Virus record (IMG/VR): IMGVR_UViG_3300043748_000006
Coordinates: 1 to 45,564 of that record
DNA: 45,564 nucleotides
Direction: 5' to 3' (one strand)
Origin: a virus
Lineage: Duplodnaviria; Caudoviricetes
The notes beneath the pieces were generated by a model that saw only the letters and a list, made by a program, of their open reading frames with translations, did not search any database and was not told where the DNA came from. A program made the translations under genes and the position numbers. Positions 25,001-44,033 of the stretch are shown in pieces (position 1 is the stretch's first letter; the number at the start of each line of letters is the position of its first letter).

Positions 25001-25887
25001 CAACCCCTGTCGCGCCAATTCCTCAATCAGGATTTGGCTATTCCCAACAACCAACTTCATCTACTCTCAAGCAGAGGATGTTTGGATATTCTCCTTACGT
25101 CATTCCGCAAGGTGTAGATCCGGCTAGTTACAACTTCACTCAGAACTATCTTTCCCGAAAGACTCAGGGAAGTCCGTTCGAACAGCAGCAACGTCTGAAC
25201 AATACACAAGATGTTGCGATGGATGTTGCGGATAAGTCCGCCGGAAACATCCCAGTTGATAAGTACGGTGTTGTTCAGAACACTGGACAAGTTAAACCTG
25301 ACGATCTGACGAGTCAGTTCAATCAGCAAACGTCAGCTATTCGTCAAACGGGAACAAATGCGGCCGATGCGGCTCAGGCAGCTAATCAGTGGCAGCAACT
25401 TAAGAAGCAGCAGGATCTAGCGGCTTCTTACAGTGTGAAGATGGGTACCCCTGTCGCGAATGGATATGCTCCCGCGACAGGGGGTAGTCCGGTCGGAAAC
25501 AACAAGGGTGCACAGGCTGTTCAACTTGCAATGAACGCCTACAACAACAAAACACCTTATGTCTGGGGAGGTAACTCCCTCATTAAAGGTATCGATTGTA
25601 GTGGGCTTGTTCAGCAGGCTTACTCTCAACTTGGAATCAATCTTCCACGCACCACGTATGAACAGGCAAAAAGTGGCAGCGTGATCGGGTTGAATTCCCT
25701 CCAGCCCGGGGACCTAGTATTCTATAACACCGGAAGCAGTGATCCGAACGGTGTTGGCCAGTATAGTCATGTCGCCATTTATACAGGGAACGGGAACATT
25801 GTAGATGCCAGGAATACCCGAACGGGCATGCAGTCTGGTTCTATCTATGGTCCTGGTACTCCCGTATTGGGGGTGCGCCCGTGGTAA
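24997..25887 (+). CDS. NlpC/P60 peptidoglycan peptidase-domain protein
   Basis: PYVWGG...GIDCSGLV...LPRTT..Q...LQPGDLVFY...HVAIY. Confidence 0.92.
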   Translation: MTTPVAPIPQSGFGYSQQPTSSTLKQRMFGYSPYVIPQGVDPASYNFTQNYLSRKTQGSPFEQQQRLNNTQDVAMDVADKSAGNIPVDKYGVVQNTGQVKPDDLTSQFNQQTSAIRQTGTNAADAAQAANQWQQLKKQQDLAASYSVKMGTPVANGYAPATGGSPVGNNKGAQAVQLAMNAYNNKTPYVWGGNSLIKGIDCSGLVQQAYSQLGINLPRTTYEQAKSGSVIGLNSLQPGDLVFYNTGSSDPNGVGQYSHVAIYTGNGNIVDARNTRTGMQSGSIYGPGTPVLGVRPW

Positions 25888-26447
25888 ACGGTTTTGATAA
25901 CTCCACCATGAATACTGGTTACAGTAACGAACTTCGTAGGATTGGAAGTATGGGCAACTACAATGTTGCTCCACAACTTCCTAAGCCAGTCGCTACGAAC
26001 AACGTTACTTACAACCCTACGGTAAATACGCCTGGTTCCCCTGTCGCGAATACAACGTCGCCTGGAGTATCCGCGACAGGGGATCTGGGAAGACTCGTCA
26101 ATGCCATTAAGTCTCAAGAGTCGGGTAATGATTACGCGGCTCGAAACAAGGATTCTGGTGCACTTGGTGCATACCAGATTATGCCTTTCAACCTTAGTGG
26201 CTGGGGACAAGAAGCGGTTGGCCATGCCGTTAGTCCCGACGAGTTTATGGGAAGTCCTCAGCTTCAGGATCAAATCGCTCAGTACAAGCTGAACCAGTAT
26301 CTTCAGAAATATGGAGCCGCTGGTGCTGCCGCAGCTTGGTACGGTGGACCCGGTTCTGTTGCTCATATGGACGACAACAAACCCCAACCCGGAGGTTATC
26401 CCTCCATGAGGGCTTATTACGAAGCGATTCTTAGGAGGATGGGATGA
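25881..26447 (+). CDS. Lytic transglycosylase / lysozyme-like domain protein
   Basis: AIKSQESGNDY.A.N..SGALGAYQIMP...AAAWYGGPG. Confidence 0.85.
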   Translation: MVNGFDNSTMNTGYSNELRRIGSMGNYNVAPQLPKPVATNNVTYNPTVNTPGSPVANTTSPGVSATGDLGRLVNAIKSQESGNDYAARNKDSGALGAYQIMPFNLSGWGQEAVGHAVSPDEFMGSPQLQDQIAQYKLNQYLQKYGAAGAAAAWYGGPGSVAHMDDNKPQPGGYPSMRAYYEAILRRMG

Positions 26448-28741: not shown

Positions 28742-29207
28742 CTTCGCGGATTTCCTTTACCTTACGAATCTTGTTCTGAACGATGTAGAACGTTACGTGA
28801 GAGTAAGCCGACTTCCAGTTAGTCTTACTGTGTTCTCCAACCTTCATATCGAGTCCGGCCCAAGCCGCGCCTGCATGGAGGGCATCCGTGTTTTGAAGGA
28901 CTAGTTCGTAATTATCTTTAAGTTCACACAGAAGTCGTACGGCTCCAATGATCTGAGAAGCTTCCATGGATCGAGAAGCTACATTCCTCGCAACAGAGGC
29001 AGCCTTATGTACGAGAAGCTTGAAGTTTTCTACTACGAAGGTTACGGGTAGTCCAGTGTTATCGTGGTCTGACATTCCAGCCAGACACTTGATAAACATC
29101 TCCCAATCCATCTGACCATGTTGAATGGGCTTACCTTCATCATTGAAGAAGGCATAGCCGACAGTCTTACCGGGATCGATACCGATGTAACGTACGGTCT
29201 TATTCAT
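28722..29207 (-). CDS. RuvC-like Holliday junction resolvase / RNase H-fold nuclease
   Basis: IGIDPGKTVGYA and VVENF motifs. Confidence 0.7.
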   Translation of the reverse strand: MNKTVRYIGIDPGKTVGYAFFNDEGKPIQHGQMDWEMFIKCLAGMSDHDNTGLPVTFVVENFKLLVHKAASVARNVASRSMEASQIIGAVRLLCELKDNYELVLQNTDALHAGAAWAGLDMKVGEHSKTNWKSAYSHVTFYIVQNKIRKVKEIREDATPQA

Positions 29208-30580
29208 TACTTACCCCAAAACTCTTCTTCGACCGCGAAGTAAACTCCGAAGTCCTTTTCTTCCTCGACACGAGACATGATTTCTTTAATCATCGGAACG
29301 TAGTGGTCAACCTTAGGTTCACGAATCTCAAACACGACCGAGTCGTGAACCTGAAGAAGCATACGACAGTCTTCACCATCGACTTCGTGGAACAGACGAA
29401 GCATAGCAGACTTCACGATATCCGCTCCGCCGCCCTGAATCAGGGAGTTAAAAGCCTTGTGACTGTCGTTTCCTCCACCCTTAAACTTCTGGAAATGACG
29501 AGGACGACCGGCCCACGTCTTGATGGTCATTCGCTCATTGGCGTGCTGATTCACGAACTTAGCGAAACCAGCGAGCCGATCGTATTTCTCTTCCCAGTCA
29601 CGATAGAACTGGCTCGAAGGAAGTTCCTTGATGAACTCCCAAGCGGCTCGATAGTTCTCGTAACGCTTAATGTAAGCGTGTGACATGCCGTCATAACCGT
29701 ATTCCTTGGGATCAGGCTTACGGTAGTTGTCTCGAACCCACTGAGGAACTTCATCGCCAAGCATGATGGCAATCTTCAACATACCTGCGCCGAACTGCTT
29801 GGCATAGGTAAGAGTCTTCATCCCCTGTCGCGCTTCAGATGGATCGAGTCCCATCTCAAGACACATCTGGATGAAGATGTCTCGATCCTTCTTTTCCCAA
29901 CGTTCGGGACTCTTGGATCGATTGAAGATTTCAATCAGATTAGCTTGCCCAGCGTAAGGCATTGACGAAGCGAGACGGAACTCAAGCTGAGAGTAGTCCA
30001 CAGAAACGAGTCGATAACCTCGTCGAGCCACAAAGGCTTTCTTGAGTCCTCCATTCCAATCCTTGTTTGACTCACGAGGAATCTGCTGTAGGTTCGGTTT
30101 TGAGCATGATAGCCGACCCGTCTTAGTACCCGCTTGGTTGTAGTTACAGCGCAATCGTCCATCGTTGGACACAAGAGCCAAGTATGGATTGTAAAAAGCG
30201 GATAGGGACTTTTCCCATCCCCGCCATTCCAGAATCCTTGTAGCCAAGTCGGAATACTTATCGGCTCGAAGTTCAAGTAGTCGATCATAGTCTTCCATCG
30301 CAGCTTTATCAAAGGAGTAACGTCCCTTATCTGTCTTGTGGTCTTCAAGAAGTGGAATGTTAGCCTTTTTGAAGAGCTGTATCATGTTGTTGTGTGAGTT
30401 CGGAGAAAGTTCACCAAACTCATTGTGAAGCTGCTGCATTCGAGATTCACCGATAGCTCGTTGCTGTCGGCAGTATCGCTGATCGATCTCAACTCCACGC
30501 GATTCCATTGTCATAAGAAGTCGCATGAACTCTTGTTCACGTTCCCAGTAATTCTTGATGGGAGTTTGAAACTTAGCCAT
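29207..30580 (-). CDS. DNA polymerase A, polymerase domain only
   Basis: TKTGRLSC..PNLQQIP, motif A DYSQLEFRL, motif B R...K...Y...FG, N..IQG..ADI.K, motif C QVHDS. Confidence 0.93.
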   Translation of the reverse strand: MAKFQTPIKNYWEREQEFMRLLMTMESRGVEIDQRYCRQQRAIGESRMQQLHNEFGELSPNSHNNMIQLFKKANIPLLEDHKTDKGRYSFDKAAMEDYDRLLELRADKYSDLATRILEWRGWEKSLSAFYNPYLALVSNDGRLRCNYNQAGTKTGRLSCSKPNLQQIPRESNKDWNGGLKKAFVARRGYRLVSVDYSQLEFRLASSMPYAGQANLIEIFNRSKSPERWEKKDRDIFIQMCLEMGLDPSEARQGMKTLTYAKQFGAGMLKIAIMLGDEVPQWVRDNYRKPDPKEYGYDGMSHAYIKRYENYRAAWEFIKELPSSQFYRDWEEKYDRLAGFAKFVNQHANERMTIKTWAGRPRHFQKFKGGGNDSHKAFNSLIQGGGADIVKSAMLRLFHEVDGEDCRMLLQVHDSVVFEIREPKVDHYVPMIKEIMSRVEEEKDFGVYFAVEEEFWGK

Positions 30581-30776
30581 TCTTCACCACTCGGCTAAAG
30601 AAACGAAGTGGTCGTGCGTATGTCATTTGATTAGTTCGCCAGACTTTAACAGTCTGATACATATCTCCATTATCAAGACGACCTTGTTGAGCCATGAATC
30701 GGTAAGTCTTTCCTCCAATGGTACGAAACCACTTCATTTCATGTACAATTCGCTCACTCACCGGTAAGTCCCTCAC
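30573..30776 (-). CDS. Small basic hypothetical protein between the two polymerase halves
   Basis: 67 aa ORF overlapping both neighbours by a few codons. Confidence 0.6.
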   Translation of the reverse strand: MRDLPVSERIVHEMKWFRTIGGKTYRFMAQQGRLDNGDMYQTVKVWRTNQMTYARPLRFFSRVVKNG

Positions 30777-31392
30777 TCTGAAACTTGGGCCAAAGCTTTT
30801 CGAACAATTCTAGGGTTCGTTCAGTATCCCCTGTCGCGTAATCACCCATTACAGCAGCAGGAAATCTAGCCGACCATCCAAACATGGTCATGCATGCTTG
30901 CCAGAGTTCTGACTTTCTCTTTCCTTCATTCTTACAGACGTTCTTACTCAGCCAGTCGAGTGTCTTACTGAAGTAGTTCTCATTGGTGAGATGAGCCATC
31001 ATCATCGTATCGTAAAAGTAGACGTTCCTCATATCCAGACCAACGGTCAGCATAGAGAAAAGGTCGAACTTCGCGTTGTGATAGATAACAGGCATCTGCT
31101 TGTTGCGCATCAGGAGAAGACGAAACAGCTTCTCCCTGTTCTCATCCGAGATGTTGTTTTCTTCGTGTTTGATCGGGAAATAGTAACTGAACATCTCATC
31201 GTTGTTGAACATGTTACGTCCGGCAACAGAAATCCCGATCAGATGATCTGTTCCGTCCTTGACTTCCAGACCCGTTGATTCAGTGTCAACGGCCAGAAAA
31301 AGAGCCGAGGACATTTCAAAGAAGGCTTTTTCACACTGACTATCGAAATCGAAGTTATCAACTTCAGAAAGATCCTGCATTAAAGCCCCCAC
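30754..31392 (-). CDS. DNA polymerase A 3'-5' exonuclease domain (separate gene)
   Basis: Exo I AVDTESTGL, Exo II HNAKFD, DTM, Exo III YATGD; start may be ATG 31380. Confidence 0.9.
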   Translation of the reverse strand: MGALMQDLSEVDNFDFDSQCEKAFFEMSSALFLAVDTESTGLEVKDGTDHLIGISVAGRNMFNNDEMFSYYFPIKHEENNISDENREKLFRLLLMRNKQMPVIYHNAKFDLFSMLTVGLDMRNVYFYDTMMMAHLTNENYFSKTLDWLSKNVCKNEGKRKSELWQACMTMFGWSARFPAAVMGDYATGDTERTLELFEKLWPKFQSEGLTGE

Positions 31393-36349: not shown

Positions 36350-36530
36350 ATTTCACCGCCATAACCTGGAACTGAAGATCTTCGATAATCTTCTCTGCTT
36401 CATCAGCTGTCAGGTGTACGAAGGTGTGTTGATCATCCACGTACGTAGACATCTTGATTCTGTCACCGTTCTTAAGGTGACGTTGAATCCTTATAGAAGC
36501 CTCACCGTTTTCAACGTGATGTACGGCCAT
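36327..36530 (-). CDS. Hypothetical protein
   Basis: Coupled 67 aa ORF. Confidence 0.65.
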   Translation of the reverse strand: MAVHHVENGEASIRIQRHLKNGDRIKMSTYVDDQHTFVHLTADEAEKIIEDLQFQVMAVKYDRDNDC

Positions 36531-37138
36531 CAGTCCTTCACCTTCTTCAACTTAACGCCCTTCCACTTCTTCTCGCTGTCTACAATATCTTGATATGTCG
36601 CAGACTTGGGAGCATGTTGCTCGTAGACGCTGTTCCAAACGTATGTTGGATCGTTCGTAGCGTGCCAGCGATTATGGCAATTATGGCAAATCCTATGTAC
36701 ATTACCGCCTTCGTTATTGAGAGTGTTCTTGTCGGGACCATGATGGCGAGCCTGTTGCTTGCCGTTATAACATCCGACGATAGGGATATTTCCACCACAA
36801 TTAATCTGCTGTTGCCATTCACAGTCTGCCTCTTCATCCAGCGGATACATAACCGCTGCTCTTTTACGTCCCGTGGACTGTTGGTCTTTAAGGTTTGAAT
36901 CGTCTTTGTAAGTGTTTACTTCTCGAACGGGTCCGGAGGAAGTTTCAGATTCCTCATCTGATCCTCCCAGAACTGCTGCTCGATCTTCCGTGACATTCTG
37001 TTCTGCCACCAATGCATTAGTGCCATCCCAATCAGGGACAGGAATAGACTCACTCCCAAGATTAACCAATTGATGGTTGCATTGTTCATTTTCAGCACAC
37101 TCCCATGTTCGTCCTTGTAGACAAGCTACACATCGCAT
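36530..37138 (-). CDS. Zn-binding protein with a C-terminal HNH-like motif
   Basis: RHHGPDKNTLNNE..NVHRICHNCHNRWH. Confidence 0.6.
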   Translation of the reverse strand: MRCVACLQGRTWECAENEQCNHQLVNLGSESIPVPDWDGTNALVAEQNVTEDRAAVLGGSDEESETSSGPVREVNTYKDDSNLKDQQSTGRKRAAVMYPLDEEADCEWQQQINCGGNIPIVGCYNGKQQARHHGPDKNTLNNEGGNVHRICHNCHNRWHATNDPTYVWNSVYEQHAPKSATYQDIVDSEKKWKGVKLKKVKD

Positions 37139-37139
37139 G

Positions 37140-37382
37140 TCAGTTCTTCACCCACGCGCGGTCATTACCCTTACGCCAGTTACAGTAGTTGTGCGTAAGT
37201 GCAAGGTTGTTCTTAGTGTTAAGACCACCCTTGGACTTCGGAACTACGTGATCCTTACTGGCTTCTTCACGACGAACAGGCTTCTCACAGAGATAACAAA
37301 CACCCTTATCCCTACGATAAAGCTTGTTCATCGAATAGTGAGGGTTAGACTTACGCGACAGGGGTCGAGTTCGTCGAGGCAT
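37140..37382 (-). CDS. HNH endonuclease (small)
   Basis: RDKGVCYLC...DHVVPKSKGG.....NL...H..CN..KGN. Confidence 0.9.
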   Translation of the reverse strand: MPRRTRPLSRKSNPHYSMNKLYRRDKGVCYLCEKPVRREEASKDHVVPKSKGGLNTKNNLALTHNYCNWRKGNDRAWVKN

Positions 37383-37567
37383 TATTCATCCTTAGGTTTA
37401 TCCTTGTCAGGTTGTTCGAGTTTATCAGGTTCATCTTCATCTTTCTTCTGATCGAAGAGATCCAACGATCCAAATACGTTACTAAAGGCTTCGAGCGCCA
37501 GCTCGTCAGTGTAATTTGTCTTAAGGTGATGCGGGTACTTATTCTTCGACTTACGTCGTTGCGTCAT
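37382..37567 (-). CDS. Hypothetical protein
   Basis: Basic N-terminus and acidic C-terminus; start uncertain (37567 or 37582). Confidence 0.5.
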   Translation of the reverse strand: MTQRRKSKNKYPHHLKTNYTDELALEAFSNVFGSLDLFDQKKDEDEPDKLEQPDKDKPKDE

Positions 37568-37591
37568 GTTGGTTTCATCCAAACCAAATAA

Positions 37592-37625
37592 AAGAAGGCC
37601 CAGCGGGAGTACGCTAGACCTTCTT
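37592..37625 (-). terminator. Minus-strand terminator-like hairpin
   Basis: AAGAAGG..AGCG/CGCT..CCTTCTT; mismatches become G-U on the minus strand; followed by a T-rich tract. Confidence 0.55.
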
Positions 37626-37629
37626 AGGC

Positions 37630-38110
37630 TCGGCTAGCTTACAGAGATGGGTTCCGGTTATCTCAATCGATTTAAACAGGGATCGATATCGATTGAGTAG
37701 GCTTCGGACTTAGAAGATTCACTCTTCTAAACTCCAGTCCTGAAGCTTCTCCGGCCTGTCTCCACAAGCTAGACCTCTATGGTACAAACTTGAACATTAA
37801 CCTTAAAGGAATCTTCAAGTTTGTACAGTTTTAGGGTAAGGGTGAAACCGAGGAATAGGCTACGCAAGACCCAAAGCACCGGTAACGAGACTGGCGATCT
37901 CATGCTCAAGGTCGAGGCCTCCGCCTCACCCTTACCCTGAAAGGGTACCACATGAGGATGCGTGTCAAACAGATCGGACCGTCCGGGGCTGAATTTCACC
38001 CGATGGAATCAGCCAAAGTGGAACCTGATTGGCTGATTTTCATCACATACCGGCCGTGCTGTTACACACGGTACGGATGGGCTGAACGCCAGTCAGCCCC
38101 TGGACGGTGG
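37630..38110 (+). ncRNA. Candidate large structured ncRNA (about 480 nt)
   Basis: About ten nested helices, e.g. 37634-37640/37766-37772, 37662-37671/37688-37697, 37782-37794/37814-37826, 37829-37845/37926-37942, 37978-37992/38093-38108, 38002-38016/38029-38044; wobble positions are G-U on the + strand. Confidence 0.6.
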
Positions 38111-38130
38111 GGAAGCTTCGTGAACTTTCT

Positions 38131-38328
38131 TTACTCCTCAGTTTCCTTTGCAGCAGCAACATGACAAGCGTCACTGCAAAAGTCTGAGTCGTTGAAAACA
38201 GGAAGTCCACAGAACCCACACATTTTGAAGTTGTAAAGGTCCGAGTAGAGACGGTTTAGATCCGCCTCTGACATAGAGTTTTCGTTAGAACTACTCGAAG
38301 GCTCTACGTGTTCTGCCACTAGATACAT
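38131..38328 (-). CDS. Small zinc-finger protein
   Basis: CGFC...FCSDAC; SD GAGGG. Confidence 0.65.
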   Translation of the reverse strand: MYLVAEHVEPSSSSNENSMSEADLNRLYSDLYNFKMCGFCGLPVFNDSDFCSDACHVAAAKETEE

Positions 38329-38392
38329 CTTTCCCTCGCATGCTCGATATCAACATTTGAAACTTCTTTCTGGGTCAGGGACAGGTAACCCA

Positions 38393-38437
38393 CGCGACAG
38401 GGGTAGACTGTTAGATTTCTAGTCGACCCCTGTCACG
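38393..38437 (-). terminator. Imperfect stem-loop built from two opposed motif copies
   Basis: CGCGACAGGGGTAGACT ... AGTCGACCCCTGTCACG; intergenic. Confidence 0.6.
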
Positions 38438-38441
38438 GGGA

Positions 38442-38678
38442 CTAACTGTTCAAGAACGTATTCTCGTGAGCTAGACGAACTCGACCGATCAACTTATCGA
38501 TCTCGATTACGTCGCCCATCTCACTACACACTTCTTCAATCAGCTTCACGTTTACGTTCAACTTGTTTGCTAGTTCAGAGTAACTGAGGAACTTATTTTC
38601 TCTTCTGTGCCTGTTTTGCGTATGCCATCGAATCGTCAGAGCGATGACGATCTGATCTCGAATGTTCTGCTTCGTCAT
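38442..38678 (-). CDS. Small winged-helix protein
   Basis: LSYSELANKLNVNVKLIEEVC followed by a beta-hairpin. Confidence 0.6.
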   Translation of the reverse strand: MTKQNIRDQIVIALTIRWHTQNRHRRENKFLSYSELANKLNVNVKLIEEVCSEMGDVIEIDKLIGRVRLAHENTFLNS

Positions 38679-40866: not shown

Positions 40867-40901
40867 TTCAGTTTCCCTCCCAAGTTTGATGTGACTAAGG
40901 A

Positions 40902-40938
40902 CCTAGTCGGAGTTGTAGTCTAGTCAACTCCGACTAGG
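40902..40938 (-). terminator. Intergenic stem-loop
   Basis: 14-bp perfect stem CCTAGTCGGAGTTG/CAACTCCGACTAGG. Confidence 0.7.
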
Positions 40939-40945
40939 AGTTTAG

Positions 40946-41119
40946 TTACACCAACTCGAACTTATTGATTCGAATGGTGTAGTTCGGTTCTCCGGGAATC
41001 CACGGACCAGCCGTGTAACCCTTCGACTCAAAGTAAGACTTCGTTTCGGCGTAACTCTTTCCGTCGACCTTCTTACGGAAACAGAAGCCCATCGGAGTAC
41101 GTGCGATGAAGTATCCCAT
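40946..41119 (-). CDS. Small hypothetical protein (57 aa, not in the ORF track)
   Basis: SD AGGAG; MGYFIARTPMGFCFRKKVDGKSYAETKSYFESKGYTAGPWIPGEPNYTIRINKFELV. Confidence 0.65.
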   Translation of the reverse strand: MGYFIARTPMGFCFRKKVDGKSYAETKSYFESKGYTAGPWIPGEPNYTIRINKFELV

Positions 41120-41612: not shown

Positions 41613-41631
41613 CGCTGAATGCGGCTTACAA

Positions 41632-41668
41632 CCGGCTCGACCAGTACGCAGTTTTCCAGTCGAGCCGG
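41632..41668 (-). terminator. Intergenic stem-loop
   Basis: CCGGCTCGAC/GTCGAGCCGG. Confidence 0.55.
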
Positions 41669-41681
41669 AAGTAAGTCACAC

Positions 41682-41930
41682 TTAACGCATGCGCTTCTTC
41701 AAATCTCTCACATGGTCAATGATCCACCACTTAATCATGATGAGCGTATCAACCGGCCAGAAGATTCCGAGAGTCACACAGAATGACTTGTACGTCATGT
41801 ACTTCGACAACTGACTACGGTCAAAAACCTTCTTCGACTTCTCATCTTTCATCTCTCGGAAATAGACAGCCATTCCGAGACAGGCGTAGATGAAGATTAA
41901 GAGTAGGGCAATGACTACGTCGCTCTGCAT
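41682..41930 (-). CDS. Small membrane protein
   Basis: Two hydrophobic segments, with a FWP motif. Confidence 0.7.
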   Translation of the reverse strand: MQSDVVIALLLIFIYACLGMAVYFREMKDEKSKKVFDRSQLSKYMTYKSFCVTLGIFWPVDTLIMIKWWIIDHVRDLKKRMR

Positions 41931-43638: not shown

Positions 43639-43667
43639 TTTCCCTCCCTAGAAATTAGTCTTGCATT

Positions 43668-43705
43668 GGCGAACTCGGATGCATAAATTTCCAGCCGAGT
43701 TCGCC
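43668..43705 (-). terminator. Intergenic stem-loop
   Basis: GGCGAACTCGG/CCGAGTTCGCC. Confidence 0.55.
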
Positions 43706-43721
43706 CAAACGAGACTACTTA

Positions 43722-44033
43722 CTAGAAGTCACCACAACCACAACGAGCATTCTCGTTCGTGCAATCGGGGTGGCACTTACCGCATGGACCATCATTGTCA
43801 TGAGCACATGCCGGATGGTCGGACTGATCAATAAGCGACTTCGAGTTAAGCGGCTTATCAATCTTGGGACGTTGTACGTATTCGAGAACATGCTTCGCTG
43901 TCTTGCTACCATCTTCGTAACCGTTGTGGTAATTCTGTGAATCCATCTTCTCGATCTCGATCGGATTACCTACGAAGCCATCGTAGAATCCAACCTTATA
44001 AACGACGTTGCTCTTGTCCTGCTCAACCATCAT
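43722..44033 (-). CDS. Hypothetical protein with a Cys-rich C-terminus
   Basis: Y..G..DG repeats; CAH...CGKCHPDC....CGC. Confidence 0.65.
   Translation of the reverse strand: MMVEQDKSNVVYKVGFYDGFVGNPIEIEKMDSQNYHNGYEDGSKTAKHVLEYVQRPKIDKPLNSKSLIDQSDHPACAHDNDGPCGKCHPDCTNENARCGCGDF

Follow-up and report, generated by a model that had tools for sequence, protein, structure and literature searches.

What does a strongly base-paired stretch without an evident gene do in the tightly packed early and replication arm of a phage genome? Positions 37,630 to 38,110 of the sequence studied here raise this question, and an earlier note, made from the letters alone, had answered it with an undescribed RNA of about 480 nt in three domains, read from the plus strand antisense to the surrounding genes, and had proposed a decoy or antitoxin, a ribozyme, or a nuclease-associated RNA as its function. 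We examined the element, its homologues and its surroundings computationally.

A phage with a probable Streptomyces-type host

The window, by which we mean the whole stretch of DNA analysed, is a 45,564-bp phage record with an estimated completeness of 98% that encodes, by Pfam and PHROG matches, a P22/SU10-like portal and capsid, WhiB, DNA polymerase A, a primase-helicase and an SNF2 helicase. Among isolated phages, the nearest to it are Cellulosimicrobium phage DS1, Microbacterium phage Shocker and Arthrobacter phages Jasmine and Adat, with helicase identities of ~31–33%. Closer relatives, L133 and L134, lie on 45–46-kb contigs of Streptomyces assemblies and provide one member for each of the two RNA families described below. 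TTA makes up 9 of the 11,696 codons in the window, and TTA avoidance is the pattern expected where the host has the bldA tRNA. Because of this rarity and because of the relatives on Streptomyces assemblies, we consider this soil virus likely to have a Streptomyces-type host.

Within this one phage family TTA is handled in two ways: 18 loci (L020–L124) have a tRNA-Leu(TAA) and use the codon freely (3.7–33.7 TTA per 1000 codons), while the family-1 and family-2 loci have no such tRNA and avoid it (0–2.8 per 1000 codons in the 21 counted). No tRNA gene was found across 12 records of these RNA-bearing phages, and ARAGORN detected no tRNA or tmRNA gene in the window, nor in three family-1 phage contigs scanned at full length; the earlier note, too, had judged the element not tRNA-like. 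In L050 and L051, two relatives at a greater distance, tRNA genes occupy the place of the RNA. The idea that the RNA replaces tRNA-Leu(UAA) was rejected: the phages in question have no tRNAs, but they avoid TTA.

DNA polymerase A is split in the window (29207–31392, minus strand) into a 212-aa 3'-5' exonuclease ORF (30754–31392) and a 457-aa polymerase ORF (29207–30580) separated by a gap of 173 nt. The 11-mer CCCCTGTCGCG occurs in 45 exact copies (28 plus, 17 minus; ~1 per kb), both in genes and in intergenic hairpins, for example at 958, 33303, 36257, 38403 and 39316, and G003 has 32 copies; over-represented words of relatives share a CTGT-like core (CCTGTAGCC in G001:C12, CTGTAGCG in G005, CTTTACAG in Shocker and CTGTGGGA in Jasmine). 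These dispersed words could be primase, Chi-like or protein-binding sites. A link between the 11-mer and a loop of the RNA (P5, CCCUGU) was dropped, because relatives lacking the RNA also have dispersed words and the loops of clade B, a subgroup of the RNA's homologues, do not match theirs. Long imperfect intergenic hairpins (~30 bp) are found on the early arm at 38381–38449, 40886–40954, 41613–41687, 43648–43725 and 1334–1413, and resemble RNase III processing signals or U-less terminators.

A predicted RNA gene on the minus strand

The region is strongly base-paired, as the earlier note had seen (z −7.36 on the plus and −8.38 on the minus strand for 501 nt), and all eight helix pairs that it named are present where it placed them. 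Two features absent from that note are a terminator at 37625–37585 and a promoter between its domains II and III. The promoter, predicted to be of the housekeeping-sigma type (37942–37970, minus strand), has a −10 box TACCCT at 37947–37942 preceded by TGG and a −35-like GTTTGA/TTGACA at 37970–37963. The pattern [TG]GG-TANNNT occupies this position in 15/15 homologues, and with a weight matrix built from the other 14 promoters, two of them from close relatives, the window's promoter ranked first of ~91,000 window positions. The same matrix found no promoter of comparable score on the minus strand from 37580 to 28000. At the other end, the predicted intrinsic terminator, P6 (37625–37585, minus strand), combines a 14-bp stem, an ACUCC loop at 37610–37606 and a U-rich tail; a terminator hairpin of −17 to −25 kcal/mol with a U-rich tail is found in 15/15 homologues. 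The span from promoter to terminator, likewise present in 15/15, predicts a full RNA of ~350 nt from 37936 to 37585 on the minus strand (203–351 nt in homologues), and its 5' helix, P1, begins at the predicted start site, a few bases past the −10 box.

The earlier note had taken G-U pairs as an argument for a plus-strand RNA. Some helices do have G-U pairs on that strand; a symmetric count of the non-Watson-Crick cells in helices common to the folds of both strands, however, favours the minus strand, with 7 G-U versus 2 A-C in the window and 33 G-U versus 11 A-C over the 15 homologues. The minus-strand G-U pairs, among them three stacked pairs in P3 and two in the terminator, are A-C mismatches on the plus strand. 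The z-scores of the predicted RNA are equal on the two strands (−7.22 versus −7.20) and, therefore, do not decide between them. Because promoter, terminator, G-U bias and all 15 covariance-model hits agree with the direction of the neighbouring genes, we assign the predicted element to the minus strand. The antisense orientation proposed earlier is thus not borne out, and the single three-domain unit of ~480 nt gives way to an RNA of ~350 nt, with domain III lying upstream of the promoter.

Upstream of the promoter and overlapping an arm of domain III lies an operator-like near-palindrome (37974–37986) with one mismatch to a TCGGAC..TCCGG motif that precedes most clade-B promoters. In L007, L008, L015, L040, L052, L053, L056, L064, L072, L132 and L133 the form TCGGACA.TCCGG stands upstream of the −35 box. 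Judged by its sequence, the near-palindrome is likely an operator. The phage encodes WhiB, and most relatives have a GntR-type gene in the slot. An acr-aca-like operon with a GntR-type repressor was considered and found unsupported: the window lacks that gene, and PMC13551039 does not mention GntR.

Fold and coding potential

The predicted RNA folds with −148.6 kcal/mol (z −7.2). When 129 genome tiles were compared with their shuffles (three per tile), the tile placed on the element, 37585–37934, was the most stable, with an excess of −52.4 kcal/mol (mean −15.7, sd 11.4). P1 (37833–37938, minus strand), a long 5' hairpin that contains the 17-bp helix of the former domain II, varies in length among homologues, and in L005 its inner hairpin has a different sequence with the pairing kept. 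P2 (37782–37826, minus strand) contains the 13-bp helix of the same domain; here, too, structure is kept and sequence is not. The conserved core (37624–37780, minus strand; 116.8 bits with our covariance model, R1) corresponds to the former domain I. It consists, in order, of AUAGAGGUCU, the long stem P3 (37772–37759 with 37647–37634), two small internal loops, a 3–4-bp helix, a three-way junction with P4 and P5, and AGCCGAGCCUAA, its 3' end reading AGCC(A/G)AG across the family. P3 is a helix of 14–16 bp; invariant columns cluster at its base, and invariant unpaired bases lie at its foot. The junction varies in three members: P5 is absent in L015 and L052, and the junction is rearranged in L013.

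The statement that the region holds no credible gene stands. Two ORFs overlap the element (76 aa, minus strand; 70 aa, plus strand), neither with a Pfam or PHROG match, and they match only L005 and its duplicate. Because no ORF is shared among the 15 RNAs, a small peptide as the product is unsupported. Forbidding the terminator costs 14.8–23.3 kcal/mol in 15/15 homologues and, therefore, no switch to an alternative antiterminator fold is predicted; alternative folds of the nascent RNA gain 0.9–6.6 kcal/mol (15 homologues, pseudoknot-free folding).

Homologues and covariation

An alignment of the neighbouring 202-aa protein fetched 131 loci, and iterated nhmmer then identified 14 distinct homologues, giving 15 sequences with the window. 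All occupy one slot in the genomes of related ~46-kb podophages, flanked by the SNF2 helicase and an HNH-like gene. Run over 100 of the 136 sources (the window plus 99 loci, after removal of duplicates and some short ones), R1 gave 15 strong hits, all in gene direction, these hits being the sequences from which the model was built. In the alignment of the 15 sequences fitted to the structure, double-sided changes occur in 43 of 52 pairs, and pairing holds in 90.8% of cells; none of 500 shuffles reached the observed values, and slid controls gave 29–52%. RNAalifold on the unfitted MAFFT alignment found covariation in 20 of 25 pairs. Covariation, whose absence the earlier note had named as counting against an RNA, is thus present. 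Promoter, P1, P2, core and terminator occur in every member, with P1 and P2 keeping their shape rather than their sequence.

Searches beyond these loci defined the reach of the family. blastn against 50,697 phage records found no match for the window region and chance-level matches only for L133 and L070, and the helicase used alone as a query found no viral locus. In 151 Streptomyces genomes each (genus sample, stricter filters), R1 and the corresponding model of family 2, R2, found the phage contig itself and no chromosomal copy. Gene-independent DNA patterns run over IMG/VR recovered no family-1 member beyond the known contigs, a profile search of 228 loci gave duplicates only, and a comparison of L056 with four sequencing runs found nothing. 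The contigs X2–X5 show no differences from the window in 37321–38506 and differ in the flanks; as they are near-identical genomes, two of the listed runs are perhaps the source of the window and X5 has a depth below 5, we did not count them as evidence. The five sequencing runs listed for the sequence are all DNA runs, which have no bearing on expression. L132, a family-1 phage fragment of 3,956 bp inside a Chitinophaga MAG, is probably misbinned.

Rfam 15 gave no hit at the gathering threshold in the window and 17 related loci, and chance-level hits only at E up to 10. The families covered include tmRNA, RNase P, group I/II introns, 6S, GOLLD, ROOL, HEARO, riboswitches and ribozymes, and among them are all those against which the earlier note had suggested a check. 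Together with the covariation, this supports its reading of an undescribed structured phage RNA; its suggestion of a ribozyme finds no support, as no Rfam ribozyme matched. We conclude, from comparative sequence evidence, that the element represents a well-supported new phage RNA family whose function is predicted only.

A predicted kissing contact of the terminator loop

In 15/15 homologues an internal loop has the complement of the terminator loop, with four different sequence pairs: GGAGU/ACUCC in the clade of the window, GAGGCG/CGCCUC in most of clade B, GGGCG/CGCCC in L015 and UCGGA/UCCGA in L013. In the window the partner is a GGAGU bulge on P4 (37731–37735, minus strand). In 12/15 the longest stretch able to pair with the terminator loop is found at the P4 loop or bulge; in the other three it ties there, as scored by eye. 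Over the kissing columns pairing is 86.7% (0/500 shuffles), and three of six pairs show double-sided changes (29/500 shuffles); the single matches are 4–8 nt long and mostly not significant alone (shuffle p 0.01–0.94). Because the complement recurs at one place with changed sequence, we predict that the terminator loop docks on the P4 bulge as a kissing contact, which would require the finished terminator hairpin. The clade-B loops carry a GGCGCC palindrome in 11/11 and family 2 carries GGCC, whereas the window's own clade has no palindrome.

A second RNA family in a sister clade

In relatives without this RNA, a second structured family often fills the slot. It comprises 11 distinct loci (L070:3041–3173, L134:3261–3413, L011, L012, L014, L016, L017, L018, L058, L067 and L082), L009:3427–3549 (59.9 bits) and, weakly, L010; one further contig, L249, came from the gene-independent DNA patterns in IMG/VR. 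Family-2 RNAs have a TATACT promoter of their own and two hairpins at the 5' end, and their core is closed by the stem of the terminator; covariation is seen in 16 of 33 pairs, and the invariant parts are a CAAG/ACUCC internal loop and a GGCCAC hairpin loop. An Rfam scan of L134, L016 and L012 gave no hit. The helicases of these phages are only ~31–36% identical to that of the window. The five best R1 hits outside family 1 fall on family-2 cores and are weak (11–17 bits); R2, in turn, hits the cores of L008, L064 and L133 at 12–17 bits among generic terminator hits and does not hit the core in the window. Because the weak cross-hits of both models fall on cores, common descent of the two families is plausible. 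In a quick helicase tree (46 proteins, no bootstrap), 13 family-1 phages, nine family-2 phages and L065, which has a reduced hairpin array only (by eye) and no R1 hit, form one branch (SH-aLRT 97), and the RNA types follow the tree. Both RNA clades avoid TTA codons.

The slot and its neighbours

Downstream of the RNA lie an 80-aa HNH gene (37140–37382, minus strand; Pfam HNH_5, E 8e-11), part of a shuffled cassette of small genes, and the 202-aa HNH-like core gene used as the anchor to find relatives (36530–37138, minus strand; 1472 homologues). The 80-aa gene is present in 7/15 family-1 slots and 1/11 slots with the sister RNA, and Jasmine, Adat, Shocker and DS1, in which R1 finds no RNA, have the 202-aa gene as well. 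With HNH genes lacking the RNA in relatives and the RNA lacking the 80-aa HNH gene in 8/15 slots, the suggested nuclease-associated RNA is not upheld. The 202-aa protein, annotated as HNH in phage Casserole, has no match in Pfam, PHROG, PADLOC or PDB; it is cysteine-rich, with the invariant motifs DQQSTGRKRAA and HHGPDKNTLNN. The first gene downstream of the RNA belongs to at least three families plus singletons, and the wider operon is constant. In most members the ribosome-binding site of the next gene lies within ~30 nt of the U-tail; replication genes, therefore, seem to depend on terminator read-through. The RNA always has one orientation and one place, in loci that were found via the neighbouring gene.

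Domain III (37978–38108), a branched structure of ~130 nt upstream of the promoter and ~20 nt past the stop of a 65-aa gene, folds equally well on both strands (−67.0 versus −66.8) and is followed on the plus strand by a weak hairpin and a few T (by eye). L005 has a similar architecture with another sequence in the enclosing helix, L006 a weak form, and nothing like it was seen upstream of clade-B promoters. We regard domain III as an element apart from the RNA, perhaps a 3' structure of the upstream transcript. Shorter units of promoter, hairpin array and terminator are found at or near the slot in L065:2690–2875, L010:3125–3315, L033:3720–3880, L036:3700–3860 and DS1 (L001) 25880–26190.

Comparison with known RNAs

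According to the available portions of two papers, actinobacterial RNAs of 230–516 nt (Ms1/scr3559, CoRP) bind RNA polymerase (PMC9130861, PMC11077062). Ms1/MTS2823/scr3559 and CoRP resemble the phage RNA in size range (~230–516 nt), in having their own intergenic gene and in host group. In Ms1, as described in the accessible part of PMC9130861, 5' and 3' hairpins flank a central stem in 230–300 nt, a broadly similar layout; Ms1, however, has a central bubble where the phage-borne RNA has a three-way junction and a predicted kissing terminator loop. The Ms1 model (RF02566) gave no hit, which is a weak test because the model also missed its cut-off in two Streptomyces genomes, and the host scr3559 region shows no sequence or model similarity to the RNA. 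The RNA lies between the phage helicase and small phage genes and not, as Ms1/scr3559, beside a HAD hydrolase gene.

HK022 put, as far as the consulted part of PMC9378689 describes it, is likewise a structured RNA behind an early phage promoter and ahead of a terminator and replication genes. This put/nut-type layout, promoter-proximal and ahead of terminator and replication genes, is found here as well; unlike put, the phage RNA ends in a strong terminator of its own, the loop of which belongs to the fold. put is several times shorter than the ~350-nt phage RNA. Lambda nut and the Bacillus EAR can be compared in the same way. The traits of a transcriptional riboswitch or attenuator were not found: no antiterminator fold comes near the terminator in energy, and the class of the first downstream gene is inconsistent.

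GOLLD, ROOL, OLE and raiA, which are large ornate non-coding RNAs (PMC12286853), are similar as covarying multi-junction RNAs with loop–loop contacts that stand alone; some of them are phage-borne. In contrast to these, the RNA described here is smaller (203–351 nt), has no Rfam hit and no tRNA neighbours, and was found in one podophage clade only. HEARO and OMEGA RNAs are nuclease-associated and lie near HNH genes; the likeness consists in the nearby HNH genes, and the difference is that the phage RNA has no fixed protein partner. Viral structured RNA candidates have been mined from IMG/VR by Fremin et al. 2023 (PMC10690425), in whose catalogue, as far as consulted, the longest entry is 151 nt and the candidates from DNA viruses with Streptomyces hosts (DNAVirus_1060, 1362 and 1369) measure 42–76 nt. 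That catalogue may list a fragment of the RNA family without naming it. In the literature covered, outside of which most subscription papers fall, we found no description of the family and no large functional RNA of such complexity for Streptomyces phages.

Discussion

We favour, at about even confidence, the reading that the element is a free, stand-alone RNA of ~350 nt, acting in trans on a host protein to which it would bind. Four features favour a stand-alone RNA that works through its shape: its ends are defined, its fold depends on the completed terminator, the gene downstream varies, and no switch is predicted. The invariant unpaired bases suggest a protein-binding surface. In this working model, the housekeeping sigma factor of the host would start the RNA at ~37936; P1 and P2 would fold and shield the 5' end; the core would form its long stem, two small internal loops and the three-way junction that turns P4 back; and the terminator hairpin would end the RNA, its loop docking on the P4 bulge and thereby holding the molecule compact and stable. 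The protein would bind to a surface made up of the invariant bases of the junction and of the foot of P3, and the downstream genes would be reached via partial read-through. The RNA may thus serve as a decoy, which is our leading reading. Because actinobacteria use unrelated structured RNAs of similar size to bind RNA polymerase, that enzyme is our leading guess for the bound protein, albeit a rather unlikely one by itself; proteins of host defence or RNA decay come next. Taken as a whole, the proposal that an entire clade of Streptomyces podophages maintains a non-coding RNA gene of its own, present in two diverged forms, with a terminator hairpin that doubles as a tertiary lock and the RNA serving as a decoy for host RNA polymerase or an anti-phage protein, a counterpart of Ms1/CoRP with a fold absent from Rfam, is put forward tentatively and well short of even confidence. 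Against a stand-alone RNA we count the apparent dependence of the replication genes on read-through, which fits a role in cis, and, further, the fixed orientation and place, the lack of likeness to Ms1/scr3559, the weak single kissing matches, and L052 and L013, which are without the standard junction.

Somewhat doubtful in itself, yet the most serious alternative, is a cis-acting leader, that is, a put/nut-like antitermination or attenuation element that would lie behind a strong early promoter and, probably together with a protein of the phage or the host, control how much transcription gets past the terminator to the HNH, exonuclease, Sak4-like, primase-helicase and polymerase genes. The order promoter, structured RNA, terminator, replication genes is the one such a leader would have, for which put is a precedent in the part of PMC9378689 available; the next gene leaves no room for a separate promoter, and no comparable minus-strand promoter follows between 37580 and 28000. 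It is also the terminator loop itself that makes the predicted contact, and DS1, L033 and L036, outside the clade, have a promoter, hairpins and a U-tail near the slot as well. However, no antiterminator fold is found, P3 with its 14–16 bp is too stable for a switch, the downstream gene varies, and the family-2 core lies inside the terminator stem, so that its folding would favour termination. The stand-alone and the leader role are not mutually exclusive.

A machine made of RNA only, working by intermolecular loop pairing (dimers or rings as in GOLLD, ROOL and pRNA) or by a catalytic or small-molecule-binding fold, is improbable. In its favour are the complementary loops of 15/15 members, which can pair between molecules as well as within one, the palindromes (GGCGCC in 11/11 clade-B loops, GGCC in family 2) and the invariant unpaired bases at the foot of P3; but the window's own clade lacks the palindrome, no Rfam ribozyme or riboswitch matches, and, to judge by the helix lengths, the contact seems feasible inside a single molecule. 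Very improbable is the original proposal of a plus-strand antisense RNA of 480 nt, or of a partner RNA for the neighbouring HNH proteins: G-U pairs of some helices, the equal folding of domain III on either strand and the weak hairpin with a few T behind it would fit the plus strand, but promoter, terminator, the 33:11 G-U bias and all model hits point to the other, and the HNH linkage is not fixed. We give equally little weight to a replication-origin primer or DNA-level structure, which would fit the element's place in a Pol A phage, with the helicase on one side and the replication module on the other, but against which stand the lack of a GC skew change at the site, the phage's own primase-helicase, the RNA features (G-U bias, promoter, terminator) and the lack of a model hit in Jasmine, Adat, Shocker and DS1.

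Few phage RNAs of such size and complexity have a known function. The family described here offers defined predicted ends, 15 covarying members, a predicted tertiary contact and a diverged sister family, and the two members on assemblies of named Streptomyces strains provide a practical entry to experiments. Binding to host RNA polymerase or to a defence protein would mean a new route by which phages take over bacteria that produce antibiotics; control of read-through would make the RNA a large antiterminator of actinobacteria.
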